Part shown: in pieces, positions 16,729 through 29,813 of the stretch
Layout: every line of letters begins with the position of its first letter
Numbering within the stretch: the first letter of the stretch is position 1
Notes under the pieces: generated by a model
The model's database searches: none
What the model was told of the DNA's origin: nothing
What the model saw: only the letters and a program-made list of their open reading frames with translations
Position numbers and translations under genes: made by a program
NCBI GenBank assembly: GCA_947585915.1
Contig: CANPXJ010000003.1
Span: 1-38,856, forward strand
Source of the DNA: an uncultured Bacilli bacterium
GTDB lineage: Bacteria > Bacillota_I > Bacilli_A > RF39 > UBA660
Direction of reading: 5' to 3'
DNA: 38,856 nucleotides

Positions 16729-17340
16729 ATGTATAAATTAAAAGAACTACCATATCTTTATCAAGATTTAGAACCATATATTAAAACGCATACAATGGGT
16801 TTGCATTATCATAAACACGCCGAGAACTATCTTAATAAATTAAATCAAATACTTACCCAAAATAATTATAAGTTTAATTATCAATTAAACGAGCTTTTAT
16901 TTCATATTGATGAATTTCCTCAAGAAGTGCAAGAAGATATTTTATTTAATTTAGGAGGAGTTATAAATCATAACTTATATTTTTATAGTATAGGTAAAGA
17001 TAGTGCTAAACCAGAAGGCTTATTTAAAAGTTATTTAGAAAGAAAATATCAAAATTTGGATAACTTTTTTCAAAAATTAAAAGAAAAAGCCTTAAAATTA
17101 AAAGGCTCTGGTTATACTTTTTTAGTAATTAATGCAAAACAAGAATTAGATTTAATTAATTTACCAAATCAACAAACACCTTGGCTAATTGGTAATATTC
17201 CTCTTTTTTGTATCGATTTATGGGAACATGCTTACTATTTAACTTATGAAAATGATAAAGAAAAGTATATTGATAATTTTATTGAAATTGCTGATTTTTC
17301 TTTAGCCAGTAAAATATTTAATAATTATTTTAAAGCTTGA
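16729..17340 (+). CDS. sodA: Fe/Mn superoxide dismutase
   Basis: [32 protein letters not shown]; ATG 16729 follows AGGAGG. Metal specificity is not certain. Confidence 0.88.
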
Positions 17341-18788
17341 ATTATAATGGTAACTACTGGATTAATAAATGATGAATAACTGCTTATGTTAGCAATATTA
17401 GGAGCATTTAAGTAAAATGATTTATTACCTAAATTTACAAGTTCAAAAACATCATCAGTTGAAGCATTAAAGATTCCATGCCCAGCTATTTCTAAAACAG
17501 GTTCCGCAAAATTCCAAACAGAACGACCGGCATAAACTGTATCTTCGCCTACTTTTTTAAAACCTATGGCAATTATATCGGTAGTTGGATCAAAGTCTTG
17601 AGTTGTTGTATAAGAAGCATTAACGATAAAATCGATGCGATAAACTCCATCTTTATTAAAAGTTATAGTATTGTTATCAAGATTTATTTCGTTTCTTACA
17701 TCTAAGGACTTAATTTCAATTGGAATTCGACCTTTGCTTGGCACTTCAACACCTTGGGGTTTTTGATCTTCATCATGAAAAGTTACGAAGAAGGCGGCGG
17801 GAATTTCTAATGGTCCTTCAACGCCTTGGGGGCCCTGTGGACCAGGTTCACCCTTATCTCCTTTAGGCCCTTGTTCGCCTTTTTCTCCAGGTAATCCTTG
17901 TTCACCTCTTGGCCCTTGTGGTCCCATTGGTCCTGTATCCCCTTTAGGTCCATCACTCCCATTAATTCCTCTAGGAATAACAAAATCAAATATATGATTT
18001 AAACCGGCTTTACGATCGACGATTTTGGCAAAGGTACTAGCATCACCTGTAGAAACAATTCCTAAACTAATTGTTTCGCCTTCACCAGTGTCACCTTTAT
18101 CCCCCTTTGGTCCTTGAGGACCTGGTGGACCCATCTCACCTTTTTCGCCTTTCCAACCAGTAGGTCCTGGATCTCCTTTTTCGCCAGGAGGACCTTGAAT
18201 TCCTTGTGGTCCAGTATCACCTTTAGGACCGGGGTCACCTTGTGGTCCCATTGGACCTATATCTCCTTTAGGCCCTTGGGGACCTATATCACCTGTCTCC
18301 CCTTTTTCACCTGGAATTCCCTGTTCTCCTTTTTCGCCTTGCTCACCTTGAATTCCTTGTTCACCTTGCGGTCCTTGAGGTCCTCTTGGCCCTTGTAATC
18401 CTGTTTCCCCTTTAGGTCCAATTAAACCTTGCGGTCCAGTTTCCCCTTTAGGTCCACGAATATGACCAACATTTGCCCATTCATTTTCTTCTTCTGACCA
18501 AACATATAAATCATCACCAACTAAATACGACGAACCAATTGTGGAAGTAGGGTGATGAGCAATTAAATCATTATAAGAATCATAATTACCTAAAATTGTA
18601 ACACTAACACCGGCTGGTCCCTGTGGTCCAGTTGGACCTATTTCACCAGTGTCTCCTTTATCACCCTTCGGTCCAGTTGGACCTACACTAGGGGAGTATT
18701 GAGGATATGAATAACAATAGGGGGTACAATTACAATTTTTTTGGGCATTATTAATTTTATCTAAAGCTTTTTGATAACTATTATTCAT
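17325..18788 (-). CDS. Collagen-like (Gly-X-Y) protein, possibly spore/exosporium surface protein
   Basis: Three GXY tracts with two short globular interruptions, a Cys/Tyr-rich N-terminus, a beta-rich C-terminal domain, and no obvious signal peptide. Confidence 0.85.
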
Positions 18789-20483: not shown

Positions 20484-20608
20484 ATTATAAATTTCCTCTC
20501 TAAAATCGTTCTTATTTTAACATAGGCAACCCAAACACACAATATATAAATATTGATTTTAGTAAAAATAATGTTATAATCAAAGCAAAGAAAAGTTTGG
20601 TGGTAGAA

Positions 20609-21310
20609 GTGATAGATTTTTATGAACTATTAGGAATAAGTAAAAATGCTTCCAATGAAGCTATCAAAACTGCCTATCGTTCTATGGTAAAAAAATATCA
20701 TCCCGATATTAATAAAACTGAAGAAGCTGAGGCAATCATCAGAAGTTTAAATGAAGCTAAAGATACTTTATTAAATGAAGAAAAAAGAAAAGAGTATGAT
20801 AAAACTTTAGATGAAATTAAATATTCTAAACAATTTTCAAGTAATAAAGAATCAACTTATAAAGCTAAAAAAGAAAAATATAAAGAGAACTATGCCGATG
20901 CTTATTTAACCAGATGGCAATTCTTTATTTATTACTTAAAACAAAGTCAAAATAAAATAATTTTTAAATTTTTAAAATCACTTTTAGTAGGTATAAATTT
21001 TTCGATTTTTCTTATAATTAAGGGAATAATTTTTGGTGTTTTATTTGTAGTTTATTTATTTAGTGACTTTATTGATTATGTAATTGGTTTATTTATGTTA
21101 ATTGCTTTATTAGGGTTATTTTTCTTAAGTCATGAACAAAGTCCTGATATAATTCCTTTATTACCAGCTAATATTGAATTTTTTGGCTTAATTTCCATTG
21201 GCTGTTTAATAATAGGTCTTTTAAAAAATACAATTATTACAAAATCGATTAATCTTTATGCCTTAATACAAGATTGGGAAGATTTTATCTTTTTAAAAAT
21301 TTTAAATTAA
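20609..21310 (+). CDS. DnaJ domain-containing membrane protein
   Basis: DFYELLGI..A..IKTAYR...YHPD...LNEAKDTL..EKRKEYD J-domain followed by hydrophobic TM segments. GTG 20609 is the likely start (track start 20597). Confidence 0.88.
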   Translation: MIDFYELLGISKNASNEAIKTAYRSMVKKYHPDINKTEEAEAIIRSLNEAKDTLLNEEKRKEYDKTLDEIKYSKQFSSNKESTYKAKKEKYKENYADAYLTRWQFFIYYLKQSQNKIIFKFLKSLLVGINFSIFLIIKGIIFGVLFVVYLFSDFIDYVIGLFMLIALLGLFFLSHEQSPDIIPLLPANIEFFGLISIGCLIIGLLKNTIITKSINLYALIQDWEDFIFLKILN

Positions 21311-23097: not shown

Positions 23098-24477
23098 ATG
23101 AAAGATAAATTAAAAAAATATAATTCAAAAAGAGATTTTGCTAAAACAAAAGAACCAATTGGCAAAGAAAGAAAAAGTAAAAAGCAACCCATTTTTGCTG
23201 TGCAACATCACATGGCTACTCGCGACCATTATGATTTTCGTTTGGAATTTGAGGGAGTACTCAAAAGTTGGGCCGTTCCTAAAGGACCATCATACAATCC
23301 TCAAGATAAAAGACTAGCTATCTTGGTTGAAGATCATCCTTATGATTATCATGATTTTGAAGGAACTATTCCTAAAGGAGAATATGGTGGAGGAGAAGTC
23401 ATGCTTTTTGATGAGGGGACTTATCAAATAATAGGAGATTTTAAAAAATCTTGGCAAGATGGAGCTTTAAAATTTAAACTTAATGGTAAAAGGTTAAAAG
23501 GTAAATGGACTTTAATTAATATTGAAAAAGAAAATTGGCTTTTAATTAAAGAAAAAGATGAATATGTAAATTATAAAGATATAACTAAATTTAAGACTAG
23601 TATTAAAACGGGAAGAACAATGAAACAAATTAAAGAAGGAGTAAATAAAAAACAAAAAAGTTGTAATATTGAAATAACCAATCCTGATAAAATCATGTTT
23701 AAGCCCGACATTACAAAGATGGATTTGGTTAAGTACTATCAAAAAGTAGCTAAAAGGATGCTTCCCTTTTTAGAAAATCGTCTTATTAGTACTATTAGAT
23801 GCCCTGAAGGCATTTACAAAGAAAAATTTTTTAAGAAACATTTAGATAATGATTATTTAACCAAAGTCATTTTACCAAATAATGATAATAAAAAAGAAGA
23901 TTACTATTATATTACTGATGAAGATGGTTTAATTAGTGAAGTTCAAAGAAATAGTGTAGAATTTCATATTTGGGGAAGTAGAGCCGAGACTTTGGAAAAT
24001 CCTGATTATATGGTTTTTGATTTAGATCCAGATGAGAAACTAAGTATTAAAAAATTAAGAGATGGCGTTAGAGATTTAAAAAGTATATTAGAGGAGTTGG
24101 ATTTAAAAGCGTATTTGAAAACTAGTGGGGGAAAAGGGTATCATGTTGTAGTTCCTCTTAAATATGAAATATCTTGGGAGGAATTTCGAAAGGTTGCTAA
24201 AAATGTTGCAGAGTTAATGGCAACTAAATGGCCTGATAAATATGTTGATAACATGCGTAAGGTCAATAGAAAAGGAAAGATTTTTATTGACTGGGTAAGA
24301 AATACTAAATCTTCAACTAGTGTTGCTCCTTATTCTTTGAGAGCTCGTCCTAATGCTCCAGTTTCCATGCCGATAAAATGGAGTGAATTAGATAAAATAA
24401 AACCTAATGAAATAACAATTAAAACGGCTCTAAAAAGATTGCGTAATAAAGATCCATGGGAAGATTTCTTTAATTAA
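23098..24477 (+). CDS. ligD: NHEJ LigD-like protein: 3'-phosphoesterase plus primase/polymerase domains, no ligase domain
   Basis: YNSKRDFAKTKEP, QHHMATRDHYDFRLE, SWAVPKGP, EDHP (PE); ITNPDK, RCPEG, FDLDP, KTSGGKGYH, VAPYSLRA (Pol). No KxDG ligase motif. Confidence 0.92.
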   Translation: MKDKLKKYNSKRDFAKTKEPIGKERKSKKQPIFAVQHHMATRDHYDFRLEFEGVLKSWAVPKGPSYNPQDKRLAILVEDHPYDYHDFEGTIPKGEYGGGEVMLFDEGTYQIIGDFKKSWQDGALKFKLNGKRLKGKWTLINIEKENWLLIKEKDEYVNYKDITKFKTSIKTGRTMKQIKEGVNKKQKSCNIEITNPDKIMFKPDITKMDLVKYYQKVAKRMLPFLENRLISTIRCPEGIYKEKFFKKHLDNDYLTKVILPNNDNKKEDYYYITDEDGLISEVQRNSVEFHIWGSRAETLENPDYMVFDLDPDEKLSIKKLRDGVRDLKSILEELDLKAYLKTSGGKGYHVVVPLKYEISWEEFRKVAKNVAELMATKWPDKYVDNMRKVNRKGKIFIDWVRNTKSSTSVAPYSLRARPNAPVSMPIKWSELDKIKPNEITIKTALKRLRNKDPWEDFFN

Positions 24478-24512: not shown

Positions 24513-25424
24513 ATGGAAGAAATTATAAAAATTGATGAATATTTAAAAAGCTTAAAGGAATATTTAGAACAAAGAGGGATAAAAACCAATAAAATTATTT
24601 TAGATGATATAAAAGATAAGATGTATTCTCTTATTGCCTTATGGGAAGATAGAAATTTACGAAATGGTATTTTATTCTTTGCAAAAGAAATTGCCGAATT
24701 TTATGAGCCTAATGCTAATATTGGTATCAAATCATTTGTCGTAAGTACGGTTCGTAATTCTTATTTAGAAAGTGCTGGTTCTGAGTTTTATCAAAATTAT
24801 TATTTTGAAAATCAACTAACAGATGAAGATATGCCTAAAATAACTGGTTTTGCTATTAACTTTTTTAAAAAATTTGATTTTGTTAAGGCTTCTAAAGAGT
24901 TAATGGGTAAAGTAAATGATAATTACTATTTAAAAATAATTCAAAAATATCCTTTGGCTTGGAAAGTTATTGAAAGATTAGCTAATCTTAAAACGAGTGA
25001 AGCTTATTTTGATAAAATTCCTTTGAAAACTGATTTATTAAATCTTAGAACAATTGGTGGATTTAAACCAAAGACAAATAAAAAAGGGCAAATCATTGAA
25101 GATGGTAACTCTTTAGCATTTAATACGGAGCTTTTAAAACAGTTAGAAGATATTGCCCAAGCTAAGGGAGTCTTTTTTACTAATTCTTTTAAAACTTTAT
25201 CACGCAATTTTGAAAAAGTGTTAAAAACAATTGAGTATTTACTACAAAGAGATTGCATTTATGTAACAATGAATTACTATATTTCCAATGGTTATGTGTC
25301 TTGTCGCAAAAAGTTAATGCCTCCTCAACATGCTTCCAAAAGTGTAGCAATAAATTTTAATGATATATCTAAAAAACATAAAAAAGTTTTAGAGAGTTTA
25401 AAAAAACAAGGAGTTTTACTCTAA
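24513..25424 (+). CDS. Hypothetical protein
   Basis: 303-aa ORF with a GAGG RBS; the C-terminal part weakly resembles a resolvase-fold segment. Confidence 0.75.
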   Translation: MEEIIKIDEYLKSLKEYLEQRGIKTNKIILDDIKDKMYSLIALWEDRNLRNGILFFAKEIAEFYEPNANIGIKSFVVSTVRNSYLESAGSEFYQNYYFENQLTDEDMPKITGFAINFFKKFDFVKASKELMGKVNDNYYLKIIQKYPLAWKVIERLANLKTSEAYFDKIPLKTDLLNLRTIGGFKPKTNKKGQIIEDGNSLAFNTELLKQLEDIAQAKGVFFTNSFKTLSRNFEKVLKTIEYLLQRDCIYVTMNYYISNGYVSCRKKLMPPQHASKSVAINFNDISKKHKKVLESLKKQGVLL

Positions 25425-25434
25425 TTAAAAATGA

Positions 25435-26949
25435 TTATAGTTCGTTATAATCATTTATTTTTTGCATATTATTTTGATATTCATTAATAATTAAGGTGTT
25501 AGTTGTTAATAACATTCCTGCTATAGAAATGGCATTTTCTAAACAGGTAGTTAAAACTAAAGTTGAATCTAAAACATTCGTATTTTTACTATCTTCATAA
25601 GAATCAGTTTTGACATTATATAAAACATCATAATTTTTTTGCTTTATATTTTTGATAACTTTTTCTTTATCTAAAGCAGCATTATGCATAATTTGGGCAA
25701 AGGGTTTTTTTAAAGCTTGTTTAAATAAAATATTTTCCCAAGAATTATTATCTAGGCTTTCACTTATTTTATAGTAAGTCAAACCACATCCTAAAGATAC
25801 ACCTTTGCTGGCTGAAGAAATAGCACTTAAAGCATCATCAAAACGCATTTTAGCTTCTCTTCTTTCAGTTGTCGTTTTGCTTCCCACCATAATGTAGGCC
25901 ATTCCTTTTTTTAACATAGATAATCTTTGGTTATAAAATGGTAAATCTATTTTGTTATTAGTTTTAATTTCTTTTTTTATTATGTTAATTCTTTTTGTAA
26001 TTTCTAAGTTACTCGCAAAAGTTATTGTACATTTTTCTTGGGTAATTTTAATATCATCTACTTGATTATAAAAATTATTACCTAAAATTGCTTTTAAATC
26101 ATCAATTATAAGTTGTTCATTTATTCCATATTCTTCTAATTTTAAAAGAATTACATTAATATGTTCATTTAAATACAAAGAAACTAACTCATCTTTAATA
26201 TATTCATCATATTCACTAGCAATAATTACTAAACTTTTATTTTTAGAACTTATCTCATTTATATAGGAAGAAATAGTTTCGATATCATTTAGATTATCAA
26301 TTAAAAGTATATTTGGGTTATTAAGTAAAAGGGAAGATTTATCTTTTAAATAATATGGAGAAGAAAGGGTAATATTTATTGTGTAACCTTTTAAGAATTC
26401 TAATTTGTGATAATTATTTTCCCATTCTTTAATAAATATTGCATCTTTATTTTTAAGTTTTTGGTAGGCTTCCCATACTAATCTTCCCATTTCTAAATTG
26501 TTAGCTGAAGTACAAGCAATATTTAAAAGCTGAAGACTAGTCGGTTTATGACTTAATTTTATAATTTCTTCTACTAACTCACGTCCTTTTTCTGTTAATT
26601 TTTCTTTAACGATTAAAGGATTTTTTCCTTTTTCGATTTGTTTAAGTCCTTCTTTAAAAATACTTTGGAGTAACACCAAAGTAGTAGTTGTACCATCTCC
26701 TACTTCCTCATCAGTTTTAATGGAAGCTTCTTTAGTAAGTTGCAAAATAGTATTAACAATAGCATCTTCACTTTCAATATTAGAAGCAATAGTTACTCCA
26801 TCACTTGTGATAAAAGGACTAAAAGAAGAGTTATCAATTATAACATTACTGGATTTGGGTCCGAGAGTTACCTTAACATTATCACATAAGATATCTACAG
26901 CTTTGACCATTTGTTCTTTTAATTTTAAACCACTTATAATTTTTTTCAT
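25435..26949 (-). CDS. Divergent chaperonin-60 (GroEL-like) paralog
   Basis: VTLGPK..NV, IT.DGVTIA, GDGTTT, R.DDAL, LENAISIAGMLLTT; 504 aa, shortened apical region, no GGM tail. Confidence 0.88.
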   Translation of the reverse strand: MKKIISGLKLKEQMVKAVDILCDNVKVTLGPKSSNVIIDNSSFSPFITSDGVTIASNIESEDAIVNTILQLTKEASIKTDEEVGDGTTTTLVLLQSIFKEGLKQIEKGKNPLIVKEKLTEKGRELVEEIIKLSHKPTSLQLLNIACTSANNLEMGRLVWEAYQKLKNKDAIFIKEWENNYHKLEFLKGYTINITLSSPYYLKDKSSLLLNNPNILLIDNLNDIETISSYINEISSKNKSLVIIASEYDEYIKDELVSLYLNEHINVILLKLEEYGINEQLIIDDLKAILGNNFYNQVDDIKITQEKCTITFASNLEITKRINIIKKEIKTNNKIDLPFYNQRLSMLKKGMAYIMVGSKTTTERREAKMRFDDALSAISSASKGVSLGCGLTYYKISESLDNNSWENILFKQALKKPFAQIMHNAALDKEKVIKNIKQKNYDVLYNVKTDSYEDSKNTNVLDSTLVLTTCLENAISIAGMLLTTNTLIINEYQNNMQKINDYNEL

Positions 26950-27692
26950 AATTCATCTTCCATTTCTATTATATATTGCCAATATTTTTTAGGCATAAAA
27001 TTCATTCGACAACGTTCGTTTTTTCTTTCTTTTATACCAATTGTCTGATAAAAATTTTTCCATAAATCAGCAATTTGTTTTTCTTCTTGACTAGTTTCCA
27101 CTTCATTTAAATTAAAGTTATCTTCACTAATTAAATAAACTTCTTTTTTATCATATAAACTATAAATATTTCTTTTTTTATCTTTAATAATAAAATATTC
27201 ATGGGGAAGCCTTCTTTTAAAATGTAAAGCTAGTAAGTAAATGACATTGTTATCCGGAGCAATTTCAGCGTATAAAATATGATTTTTTAATTCTTTAAAT
27301 CTTAAAAAACCTTTCAATTTATGTGCTTCATTACCTACTTGTTTTGCTATTTTAAGAGCAAGATTTACACATCTTAAATTACGATGATATATAACATCTT
27401 GATGATATTTTAAAGTATTTAAGAAAAAATAATAAATAATAAGCTCTTTATTATCATGATTAGATAAATAAACTTCATACATAATTTTAAATATTCTATA
27501 ACTATAGTTTTTCTTTATTTTATTTATTATGTTACTATCTTCTTTAATTTTTAAGAAAATTACTTCATCTAAAAGTGTCGCATTATAACTTGTATCTTTA
27601 ATATTATCAGGTTTTATCTTATTTTTAAGTAAATAATCTATTAAGCATAGAAGACTAATAAAATTATCGTGATATAAATAAATAGTATTCAT
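26946..27692 (-). CDS. TIGR03915/DUF4130 family putative DNA metabolism protein
   Basis: V.NEAHKLKGFLRF, YAEIAPDNNV..L..HF.RR, LWKNFYQTIGIKERKN.R.RMNFMPKKYW. Confidence 0.92.
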   Translation of the reverse strand: MNTIYLYHDNFISLLCLIDYLLKNKIKPDNIKDTSYNATLLDEVIFLKIKEDSNIINKIKKNYSYRIFKIMYEVYLSNHDNKELIIYYFFLNTLKYHQDVIYHRNLRCVNLALKIAKQVGNEAHKLKGFLRFKELKNHILYAEIAPDNNVIYLLALHFKRRLPHEYFIIKDKKRNIYSLYDKKEVYLISEDNFNLNEVETSQEEKQIADLWKNFYQTIGIKERKNERCRMNFMPKKYWQYIIEMEDEL

Positions 27693-28894
27693 TCAAAAAA
27701 ACTCAATTGCTTATTACTATTAATTGGGGGTATTTTATCTTCTAATACTAAATTAGCCTCAATAAAATTCTTCTTAAAATAAGATAGATTGGTAAAATAT
27801 TTATGGTTACAAGTTATAAAGTATTTGGCTCTTTTTAAGACGATGCCCATTGCTTTTAAATCTTTGAAAGTAATTTTAAAATGCTGACGGGAACTAATAA
27901 TCCTCCTAGCTCCCTTAACCCCAATCCCTGGCACTTTAAGAAGATCATAATAAGAGGCAGTATTTATTTCTTTGGGAAATTCTTCTAAATGATTTAAAGC
28001 CCAGAAAGCTTTAGGGTCGAGTAGTAAGTTTAAATTAGGGTGCTCTTCATCTAGAATATCTTTAGTTTTAAAATGATAATAACGAAGAAGCCAGTCGGTT
28101 TGATAAAGCCGATGTTCTCTAACAAGAGGTGGAGTAGTTAGGCTTGGTAATAATTTATCTTTATTAACAGGTATATAGGCAGAATAAAAAACTCTTTTTA
28201 AATTGTAGTTTTGGTACATGTTTTCACTTTTTTGCATGATATCTAAATCATTTTCCTTGGTAGCTCCAATAATCATTTGCGTACTTTGCCCAGCTGGCGT
28301 AAATTTGCGTGATTTATTATTTTTAATGTAACTCATGATATTTTCAACTTTTTTAGTTTCTTTGTTAGGAGCTAGTAATTTTAATGATTGTTCAGTAGGT
28401 AATTCAACATTAGCACTAAGTCGGTCCACTAATAAACCTAACTTTTTTAATAAAACTTCACTGCAATTGGGAATGGCTTTAGCATGAATATATCCACCAA
28501 AATGATATTTATGACGAAGTAAATGAATTGTTTTTATCATTAATTCCATTGTATAATCAGCATTTTTTATAATACCAGAGCTTAAAAATAATCCTTCAAT
28601 ATAATTACGACGATAAAAGTTTAATGTTATACTACAAATTTCTTCTGGTGTAAATAACGCTCGTTTTACATTATTGCTTTTTCGATTTAAACAATATTTA
28701 CAATCATAAATACAACAATTGGTCATAAGAATTTTAAGTAAAGAAATACATCTTCCATCAGCTGAAAAAGAATGACATATTCCACTAAAAGACGTGTTAC
28801 CAAAGGCATTTTGCCGCTTGCTCCCGCTGGAAGAGCATGAGGCATCATATTTAGCGCTATCAGCAAGTATTTGTAGTTTTTCTTTTATCTCCAT
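27689..28894 (-). CDS. Putative DNA modification/repair radical SAM protein (TIGR03916-like)
   Basis: KLQILADSAKYDASCSSSG, GICHSFSADGRCISLLKILMTNCCIYDCKYC (CxxxCxxC), PAGQSTQMIIG, REHRLYQ, HhH motif LLKVPGIG. Confidence 0.95.
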   Translation of the reverse strand: MEIKEKLQILADSAKYDASCSSSGSKRQNAFGNTSFSGICHSFSADGRCISLLKILMTNCCIYDCKYCLNRKSNNVKRALFTPEEICSITLNFYRRNYIEGLFLSSGIIKNADYTMELMIKTIHLLRHKYHFGGYIHAKAIPNCSEVLLKKLGLLVDRLSANVELPTEQSLKLLAPNKETKKVENIMSYIKNNKSRKFTPAGQSTQMIIGATKENDLDIMQKSENMYQNYNLKRVFYSAYIPVNKDKLLPSLTTPPLVREHRLYQTDWLLRYYHFKTKDILDEEHPNLNLLLDPKAFWALNHLEEFPKEINTASYYDLLKVPGIGVKGARRIISSRQHFKITFKDLKAMGIVLKRAKYFITCNHKYFTNLSYFKKNFIEANLVLEDKIPPINSNKQLSFFE

Positions 28895-28937
28895 AATTAT
28901 TCACCATCTTTAGTATACCTCAAAATTATAAAATAAG

Positions 28938-28951
28938 CAAACAAATGTTTA
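28938..28951 (-). promoter_or_regulatory. LexA (Cheo)-like box at the -35 of the radical SAM operon promoter
   Basis: CAAAC-AAAT-GTTTA on the + strand, overlapping TTGCTT-N17-TATACT on the minus strand. Confidence 0.6.
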
Positions 28952-28997: not shown

Positions 28998-29026
28998 TTG
29001 ACAAAAACGAAAAAATGTGCTATAAT
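28998..29026 (+). promoter_or_regulatory. Consensus sigmaA promoter
   Basis: TTGACA-N17-TATAAT with an extended TG. Confidence 0.85.
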
Positions 29027-29117
29027 TTTAGCATCAGTGGGGATTGGGTAGCATATAAAAATTGTACTTATAAAGTCCTGATTGAAAGGATTTTTTCTAT
29101 TTAAGGGGGAAAAGAAA

Positions 29118-29813
29118 ATGGAAATAATTGCTCATACTGCATTAACTGCTAAAACAAAAGAAGGATTAGAAAATTTAATTGCCGATGATAGATTTTCAAA
29201 AATAGAATTAGATTTTATTCCAACTAAAGATACAACTTTAGTCTGGGCACATGGTCTAAAAAAAGATAATCAAAAATTAAATCAAACAAATTATAAAGAT
29301 TTAAGCAATGTTTTAACTTTAGATGAAGTCTTAGAAATTGTAAATAATAGAAAGAAATTATTAATTGAAATTAAACATTTTATAGATTACAAACAAAAAT
29401 CGGAAGAGTTATTAAAGAAATTAGAACAATTAAAATATACAAAAGATAATGTGCAAATTCAAAGTTTTAATCAACATGTCATAAAATTTTTATTACAAAA
29501 CAAAGAAAATTTAAAAAATGTTGAAATAGGACTAATAATTAATTTATTTAAGACTTTTAATTATCGAAAAGGAAATATTGAAGGTTTAGAAAACGTGGAT
29601 TTTGTGTCTTTAGCTTCTGAATTATATGAATGGCCTGTTGTCGGAGAAGATTATAAATTATATAGAGATTTATTTTTAAATTCTAAACAATATGCATGGA
29701 CATGGGATTTAGTTTATAAAGAAACAGATAAACGTCTTAATAACTATATTGATAAAAAAGTAGATGGAATTATTACTTTAGCTCCTGAACTTATTTTAAA
29801 TCGTACTAGATAA
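29118..29813 (+). CDS. Glycerophosphodiester phosphodiesterase (GDPD)-like protein
   Basis: IIAH, IELD, AH, IEIK, IQSFN, AWT, VDGIIT; ATG 29118 follows AGGGGG. Confidence 0.78.
   Translation: MEIIAHTALTAKTKEGLENLIADDRFSKIELDFIPTKDTTLVWAHGLKKDNQKLNQTNYKDLSNVLTLDEVLEIVNNRKKLLIEIKHFIDYKQKSEELLKKLEQLKYTKDNVQIQSFNQHVIKFLLQNKENLKNVEIGLIINLFKTFNYRKGNIEGLENVDFVSLASELYEWPVVGEDYKLYRDLFLNSKQYAWTWDLVYKETDKRLNNYIDKKVDGIITLAPELILNRTR

Follow-up and report, generated by a model that had tools for sequence, protein, structure and literature searches.

We describe an operon in an uncultured bacterium of the Bacilli (GTDB lineage Bacillota_I; Bacilli_A; RF39; UBA660) that joins a radical-SAM enzyme (rSAM) and a DUF4130 protein to a GroEL-like ATPase of the Cpn60 family. 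It lies in a stretch of 38,856 nucleotides, hereafter the window, which spans positions 1 to 38,856 of contig CANPXJ010000003.1 in assembly GCA_947585915.1. Our tentative hypothesis, held with confidence a little short of even, is that this Cpn60 is a private chaperonin, independent of GroES and induced together with the rSAM enzyme, which it binds, folds or holds. In other words, the data suggest that a small-genome gut bacterium lacking the usual GroES and GroEL keeps a GroEL-like ATPase for a single client.

The family assignments of the first two genes are straightforward. The rSAM protein scores 607.9 bits against TIGR03916 (cut-off 343.5), and the cysteines of its CxxxCxxC motif, C61, C65 and C68, are invariant among 40 orthologues; the DUF4130 protein scores 205.9 bits against TIGR03915 (cut-off 112.25) and also matches PF13566. 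Pfam detects no uracil-DNA glycosylase (UDG) domain in this 248-aa protein, which matches DUF4130 only, nor among the neighbours scanned. The third protein matches PF00118 over residues 23-488 (142.6 bits, cut-off 34.3) and falls under all of the NCBIfam GroEL cut-offs, coming closest to that of NF009487 (305.4 vs 352 bits) and scoring 278.6 bits against TIGR02348, where the cut-off is 582.1. A preliminary description of this DNA, made from its letters alone, had reported two ATGA overlaps joining the three genes and the ATP-site motifs LGPK, DGVT, GDGTTT and RFDDAL in the chaperonin; both overlaps can be read in the sequence and all four motifs are present in the translation.

The operon gene is the only PF00118 match in the assembly, which comprises 1.39 Mb in 93 contigs and is 91.7% complete. 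The preliminary description saw no groES at the locus, and Cpn10, the GroES family, was indeed found neither in the window nor in the whole assembly. The same description had taken the chaperonin for a repurposed paralogue and proposed that a canonical groES-groEL be sought elsewhere; that check returned no second Cpn60 and no GroES. A paralogue beside a canonical groESL is thereby ruled out here and likewise in G470, a genome of another family (sampled genomes carry G numbers and compared loci L numbers), and in the cassette-carrying sampled genomes that were checked the cassette Cpn60 is the only one. The chaperonin is thus literally the only groEL of its genome, a result that had been expected to end the idea of a dedicated partner, yet it instead alters the story to one of a housekeeping chaperonin reduced to one operon.

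Cpn60 and the rSAM enzyme occur together across the family, a point that the preliminary description had proposed to test. Among the 40 nearest genomes, a Cpn60 homologue and TIGR03916 above its cut-off have one and the same distribution, namely 10 family genomes in addition to the genome of the window, and none of the 24 closest family relatives has Cpn10. A wider family sample of 151 genomes from 150 genera contains Cpn60 in 31, TIGR03916 above cut-off in 29 and Cpn10 in 4; no Cpn60 was found in the other 120. All 29 rSAM-positive genomes have Cpn60, on the same contig and strand and 720-1090 bp away in 28 of them and on a different contig in the last (G058). Conversely, 30 of the 31 Cpn60 genes sit in an rSAM-DUF4130 operon. 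Two genomes have Cpn60 without rSAM, namely G122, which starts with DUF4130 at a contig edge, and G049, which carries a plain groES-groEL; in G133 the only rSAM relative is a distant one (297 bits, 38% identity), and it has no DUF4130 neighbour.

The adjacency of the three genes is conserved too. Every contiguous locus examined shows the order rSAM-DUF4130-(GroES)-Cpn60, with stop and start codons that overlap in most cases on the maps of open reading frames (ORFs), and this order is kept while identity to the window's proteins falls to 31-39% for Cpn60, 34-46% for DUF4130 and 58-70% for rSAM. A related-locus search of genome contigs with Cpn60 as the sole query gave no matches. As a separate observation, G120 carries an orphan GroES (L059 3025-3327; PF00166, 84.6 bits) with no Cpn60 found by the Cpn60 query used, and the 532-aa ORF downstream of it has no Pfam match.

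Among rSAM loci of named genomes the linkage is confined to a minority. An rSAM profile search retrieved 80 loci from named genomes, and 21 of them have Cpn60 downstream, three of which duplicate loci already compared. These 21 come from metagenome-assembled genomes (MAGs) labelled Bacilli, Tenericutes or Erysipelotrichaceae, from Clostridium sp. CAG:524, and from one MAG each labelled Muribaculaceae, Clostridiales and 'uncultured bacterium'. None of the 59 rSAM-DUF4130 loci of other lineages (Clostridia, Bacteroidota and others) has a Cpn60 within the fetched flanks. Across the class, a sample of 401 genomes from 30 families contains TIGR03916 in eight, seven of them in this family (including the window's genome) and the eighth being G470.

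The operon appears to be controlled by the SOS regulator LexA. The preliminary description had noted a LexA-like box over the -35 element. The AAAC-N4-GTTT core of this box is not above chance in so AT-rich a window (2 found vs 1.73 expected); its significance lies in its conservation in orthologues and its use elsewhere in the genome. Of 49 orthologous promoters, 30 have a strict NNAAC-N4-GTTNN palindrome no more than 160 bp from the rSAM start, where chance would give 0.046 per 160 bp or about 2 of 49; most of the other 19 promoters contain, by eye, near variants of the box. Orthologous loci also share the same layout of box, TATAAT and GGTGA ahead of the start codon. The genome encodes LexA (227.6 bits), and the lexA promoter has two boxes of the same type. 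A genome-wide scan by regular expression, using a form narrower than the palindrome above, found 78 boxes, 11 of which are intergenic with an ORF start no more than 150 bp away; these precede this operon, lexA, recA, a Y-family polymerase (two boxes), ORF6N, Bro-N and LPD3 genes, priA, an HD-domain gene and two unknown genes. On this comparative evidence the palindrome is best read as this organism's LexA operator, and the operon as a member of its predicted LexA regulon. The promoter itself, read by eye, is not listed by a consensus scan, whose count for the region is at chance (27 vs 27.7 expected), and a terminator scan is likewise at chance level (1 found vs 1.0 expected).

In low-GC Gram-positive bacteria groESL is typically under heat-shock control by HrcA and its operator, the controlling inverted repeat of chaperone expression (CIRCE). 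No CIRCE was seen upstream of the operon in the preliminary description, and none occurs anywhere in the window at up to three mismatches. However, CIRCE is found at five sites elsewhere in the same genome, including before hrcA and a Clp ATPase gene. Its absence here, together with the LexA box ahead of the operon, suggests that the chaperonin has moved from heat-shock to SOS control. Among the other boxes, those ahead of the ORF6N, Bro-N and LPD3 genes (C19 4599, C41 112 and C48 6746 of the same genome) precede domains that are typical of prophage anti-repressors and mobile elements, which suggests that the genome also contains SOS-controlled mobile elements.

The chaperonin itself retains the architecture of GroEL. 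Its AlphaFold2 model has a mean predicted local distance difference test score (pLDDT) of 91.7, folds into equatorial, intermediate and apical domains, and matches GroES-bound GroEL subunits in Foldseek with template modelling (TM) scores of 0.87-0.90; the equatorial strands that knit the ring are present. Aligned to E. coli GroEL, the protein lacks the residues matching 304-319 (sixteen apical residues), the 428-434 loop and the Gly-Gly-Met (GGM) tail, the last of which had already been reported missing. The apical region, once described as eroded and shortened, is therefore shortened but hardly eroded: the sixteen residues are gone, yet what remains is modelled with pLDDT above 90.

We compared 50 GroES-less sequences with E. 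coli GroEL residue by residue. G32, P33, D52, G53, D87-T90, D398, G414 and G416 are invariant in all 50, and the full ATP-site set (T30-P33, D52, D87-T91, D398, G414-G416 and D495) is invariant or nearly so, except for G415, which varies among GroES-less proteins and is C in the window's. The equatorial domain as a whole has a mean top-residue frequency of 0.62, vs 0.67 in canonical GroELs. Apical positions that bind GroES or substrate have changed: Y199 is replaced by L, I or V, L234 by S, A or G, V264 by S or N, and N265 by L, and E238 is N in 47 of 50 GroES-less sequences (N231 in the window's protein) vs E in 17 of 17 canonical ones. The groove residues Y203, F204, L237 and V263 remain hydrophobic. 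R197 and E386, which form the allosteric switch of GroEL, are lost, and among the double-ring contacts (K105/A108/A109/E434 and R452/E461/S463/V464) the column of the inter-ring residue E434 is deleted in 49 of 50, V464 is E or K, and A108/A109 are K, E or N. In 12 hand-picked close pairs the ratio of nonsynonymous to synonymous substitution rates (dN/dS, Nei-Gojobori) is 0.11-0.37 for Cpn60, 0.05-0.14 for rSAM and 0.08-0.39 for DUF4130; the least saturated pair gives 0.113 for Cpn60 at a dS of 0.26. Cpn60 is the fastest-evolving of the three, with 39-58% identity where rSAM has 70-80%. These patterns indicate that the Cpn60 is, as judged from its residues, an ATPase-competent protein and not a remnant, and that its GroES and ring-ring surfaces have been released from constraint.

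Structure prediction places the rSAM enzyme on the apical domain. The rSAM and DUF4130 proteins and Cpn60 residues 133-382, each entered as an alignment, were modelled together alongside three controls, a test of partner binding that the preliminary description had proposed. The rSAM-Cpn60 pair reaches a complex score of 0.70, vs 0.00 for the best of the three controls; agreement between runs is at least 88% of contacts, and the partner has a pLDDT of 86 or more. The predicted interface involves rSAM residues 250-254, 257-258, 287, 289-291, 380 and 383-384 and, on the Cpn60 side, residues 198-203, helix H (223-235) and helix I (250-264). DUF4130 contributes no residues to the interface as listed. 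The groove between helices H and I of GroEL binds the GroES loop and clients, and the model supports a predicted binding of the rSAM enzyme at this same site. The clade-specific N231 of Cpn60 stands at the centre of the predicted interface. On the rSAM side, 54 of 58 linked enzymes have L at position 291, where the residue in the 59 unlinked enzymes is E, L, Q or R and mostly charged or polar; at position 384, L is found in 41 of the 58 linked enzymes, and the unlinked have S, A or G.

Intermediate arrangements indicate how such an operon might have arisen. G075 and G099 carry rSAM-DUF4130-groES-groEL in one string, and their Cpn60s keep the canonical GroES-contact residues. The stand-alone groES-groEL of G049 has a CIRCE with one mismatch just upstream. 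G470 has Hsp20-Hsp20-rSAM-DUF4130-Cpn60, with no Cpn10 and no other Cpn60 found. Ordinary groES-groEL occurs in 19 of 41 genomes of its family, and because those GroELs are only 31-34% identical to the G470 Cpn60, the G470 cassette was probably acquired rather than home-grown.

Two Cpn60 trees bear on this descent. A quick tree of 84 rows, with the 'near G470' and canonical proteins picked by hand and three partial and three duplicate sequences omitted, contains a 45-row clade of GroES-less operon proteins with a Shimodaira-Hasegawa-like approximate likelihood ratio (SH-aLRT) support of 100. A second tree of 42 rows, from which proteins of unknown context were omitted, sets the 25 rSAM-linked rows that it includes apart from all 17 canonical rows (support 98); nearest to the canonical side are the GroES-retaining forms and G470, and the first branch among the canonical rows is G049. 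The deep order of both trees is unsure because of long branches, uneven amino-acid composition and many open forks; end branches measure 0.4-1.75 for operon Cpn60s vs 0.2-0.35 for canonical GroELs. In both trees the operon Cpn60 descends from the bacterial GroEL line.

We propose that a groES-groEL pair once stood directly downstream of rSAM-DUF4130, that a general chaperonin was no longer needed, as in other small-genome Bacilli or 'Mollicutes', and that groES was then lost while groEL would have been retained only where the rSAM system was retained.

Other divergent chaperonins were encountered along the way. The GroELs P0122-P0149, some of them from Breznakia sp. PF5-3 and a Coprobacillaceae bacterium, are 38-43% identical to the G470 protein and cluster with the GroES-retaining operon forms in the quick tree. 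Further divergent Cpn60s unlinked to rSAM occur in G033 (L024 3992-5434; 480 aa, 26% identity) and in G546 and G555 (476-514 aa, 25-29%). G033 and G555 also carry canonical groES-groEL, and no Cpn10 was found in G546; the G033 paralogue is located between PTS EIIC/MMPL genes and a TetR gene.

Under the hypothesis of a private chaperonin, DNA damage would remove LexA from the operator and the three proteins would be made together by coupled translation. The Cpn60 would probably form a single ring and bind the rSAM enzyme through its helix H/I groove, and its intact ATPase would fold, hold or release this client, a partial TIM barrel with an Fe-S cluster. The preliminary description had likewise supposed that the chaperonin is a partner of the rSAM/DUF4130 pair, either a dedicated folding or Fe-S maturation cage for the rSAM enzyme or a GroES-independent ATPase scaffold. 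Synteny, co-occurrence, the LexA box and the predicted interface all favour that tie; only the accompanying notion of a paralogue has to be given up.

Several observations count against a dedicated chaperonin. Co-occurrence may come partly from physical linkage, since an operon is gained or lost as a unit whatever its genes do, and the relatedness of the sampled genomes means that the counts do not represent independent events. In G100 the Cpn60 is split and its apical part is missing, with rSAM and DUF4130 intact; the two ORFs (L058 3531-4807), of 260 aa and 152 aa, correspond to residues 21-218 and 353-489 and represent either a natural apical-domain deletion or a pseudogene. The Cpn60 of G075 has a stop near codon 72, again beside intact rSAM and DUF4130. 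Either dependence on the chaperonin is not absolute or these are assembly errors. The cassette of G470 has no LexA box; a CIRCE-like site with three mismatches and the two Hsp20 genes lie directly upstream on the same strand (L062 4052-4975), and this heat-shock setting implies that SOS control is not universal.

The predicted interface carries its own difficulties. In calibration, 116 of 157 solved complexes but also 2 of 215 mismatched pairs reached the mark that the rSAM-Cpn60 complex passes; these counts hold only roughly here because our job, unlike the calibration, used its own alignments, three chains and a fragment. The groove of GroEL binds many hydrophobic peptides in solved structures, and the pass may partly reflect likeness to these. 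L291 of the rSAM enzyme is already present in GroES-retaining operons and so did not arise with the loss of GroES. Finally, the apical domain is the least conserved part of the protein, with a mean top-residue frequency of 0.46 vs 0.69 in canonical GroELs, a poor fit with a fixed and specific interface.

The rival that survives best, although we regard it as unlikely, is that the Cpn60 is a stable subunit or regulator rather than a foldase, its ring serving as an ATP-driven platform or gate on which folded rSAM replaces GroES. The modelled complex would suit this rival, since it docks a folded rSAM with a defined interface on the helices that bind the GroES loop. Translational coupling would match protein amounts, and Cpn60 and DUF4130 evolve at similar rates. 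With the R197-E386 switch and the inter-ring contact residues gone, the machine presumably cycles differently from GroEL. However, a stable subunit is hard to reconcile with so poorly conserved an apical domain or with the absence of DUF4130 from the listed interface, and the unlinked rSAM-DUF4130 pairs of other phyla work without any such subunit. Unlikely in our estimate is a particular form of assembly in which a single-ring, GroES-less ATPase that is no longer a folding cage receives folded rSAM at the GroES site; this would amount to a chaperonin-repair holoenzyme, induced by the SOS response, that uses ATP hydrolysis to gate or position rSAM/DUF4130 on damaged DNA.

Quite unlikely, we think, is that the Cpn60 remains a residual general chaperone with many clients that shares the repair transcript for historical reasons. 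Its housekeeping descent, with the plain GroEL of G049 branching next to the rSAM-linked group, would agree with this, as would the hydrophobic groove and the position of the G470 cassette behind Hsp20 genes and a CIRCE-like site. However, the 120 family genomes without any Cpn60 indicate that the lineage needs no general chaperonin, neither the family sample nor the rSAM loci yielded a GroES-less Cpn60 apart from the rSAM pair, and the operon has a LexA operator and no CIRCE although the HrcA/CIRCE regulon survives in the genome. That the Cpn60 is a functionless, decaying remnant carried along by the operon is highly improbable: it is the fastest-evolving of the three genes, has deletions relative to GroEL and is broken in G100 and G075, but its frame is intact in about 50 species-level genomes, its dN/dS values are low (0.11-0.37), its ATP site is invariant and its fold is confidently modelled, so the relaxed selection that the preliminary description had allowed for is not what we see. 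We also considered the Y-family polymerase of the LexA regulon as the main beneficiary of the Cpn60 and rejected it; PF00817 is present in 21 of 24 family relatives, the majority of which lack Cpn60, so this polymerase does not depend on the chaperonin.

Our favoured hypothesis of a private chaperonin can be set beside several known systems. With E. coli GroEL-GroES the operon Cpn60 shares the three-domain fold and the residues for ATP binding and hydrolysis; it differs in that no GroES was found in its genome, in its changed GroES contacts, in the replacement of HrcA/CIRCE by LexA and in its faster evolution. The TIGR03916/TIGR03915 pair is an uncharacterised, putative system of DNA repair or modification, often linked to UDG-like genes. 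It is described in passages of PMC3765255 as an SOS-linked 'SplB-like radical SAM + DUF4130' system, and the portion consulted of a preprint (bioRxiv 10.64898/2026.08.19.745780) predicts an rSAM-DUF4130 heterodimer. Our operon has the same adjacent, overlapping genes, but adds a translationally coupled third gene and has no UDG domain.

The closest functional analogy, to judge from sections of one source, is with the co-chaperonin-independent chaperonins of phages. EL gp146, OBP gp246 and AR9 gp228 are GroEL-like ATPases that are GroES-independent and have a narrow client, the phage endolysin; those of OBP and AR9 form single rings, and OBP's lacks the R197-E386 pair (parts of PMC9598537). Those proteins are phage-encoded, whereas the operon Cpn60 is chromosomal and sits in a LexA-controlled repair operon; the likeness drawn here is one of function. 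In Mollicutes and phytoplasmas GroES-GroEL is patchy or lost, according to excerpts of PMC5810989 and PMC13245659, and those excerpts make no mention of a GroES-less GroEL or of a radical-SAM link. The setting of a small genome is the same, but instead of being lost or broken up, the gene has here been maintained by purifying selection within one specific operon. Our literature search, which covered its sources in part, found no link between a chaperonin and rSAM/DUF4130 and no published description of an rSAM-DUF4130-Cpn60 operon, although the supplements of the preprint above (10.64898/2026.08.19.745780), which lay outside the search, could list neighbours.

Table 1. The operon, its control elements and other features of the window.
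Feature	Position	Strand	Remarks
Radical-SAM (rSAM) gene, 401 aa	27689-28894	minus	TIGR03916; CxxxCxxC and helix-hairpin-helix
DUF4130/TIGR03915 gene, 248 aa	26946-27692	minus	start overlaps rSAM stop (ATGA)
Cpn60 gene (GroEL-like ATPase), 504 aa	25435-26949	minus	GroES-less, fast-evolving; start overlaps DUF4130 stop (ATGA)
LexA operator (predicted), Cheo-box type palindrome	28938-28951		CAAACAAATGTTTA on plus strand; overlaps -35
Putative sigma-70 promoter	28912-28940	minus	TTGCTT (28940-28935), 17-nt spacer, TATACT (28917-28912); read by eye
Ribosome-binding site GGTGA	28905-28901	minus	3' of promoter
LigD-type gene	23098-24477	plus	3'-phosphoesterase and primase-polymerase domains
303-aa ORF	24513-25424	plus	between LigD-type and Cpn60 genes
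TTGACA-17-TATAAT promoter	28998-29026	plus	perfect consensus, extended TG
243-aa ORF	29082-29813		divergent from operon
487-aa protein	17325-18788	minus	collagen triple-helix repeats
237-aa protein	20597-21310	plus	J domain (PF00226) only

The surroundings of the operon are those of an ordinary chromosome of about 25% G+C, with neighbours such as CoaE, superoxide dismutase (SOD), MMPL, LysR and an SNF2 helicase. The LigD-type gene, which has no ligase domain, lies tail-to-tail with the Cpn60 gene, a position kept in L015, L017, L018, L019, L022 and L025; in other loci the gene is elsewhere near the operon. It would be a second repair gene retained beside the operon. The 303-aa ORF has no Pfam or NCBIfam match and no homologue among the related loci compared. 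On the other side of the operon, the perfect consensus promoter faces the divergent 243-aa ORF, which matches no family. The collagen-repeat protein coincides with the window's only G+C peak (0.38 vs about 0.25). The J-domain protein may be a specialised co-chaperone of Hsp70, in a genome whose chaperone set is reduced.

Most work on GroEL treats it as a generalist that serves hundreds of clients. In this lineage it has seemingly been pared down to a single operon and probably a single client, in a cell without GroES. Such a system would offer a natural minimal setting for chaperonin action on a single obligate client and for a group I chaperonin that works without a lid, and it presents what looks like a clear case of a heat-shock gene passing from HrcA/CIRCE to LexA control. 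It would also open the widespread but uncharacterised TIGR03916/DUF4130 'DNA repair' system to experiment, since its rSAM enzyme may be hard to produce without its chaperonin. The hypothesis further predicts that the rSAM-DUF4130 enzymes of ordinary bacteria are GroEL-dependent.

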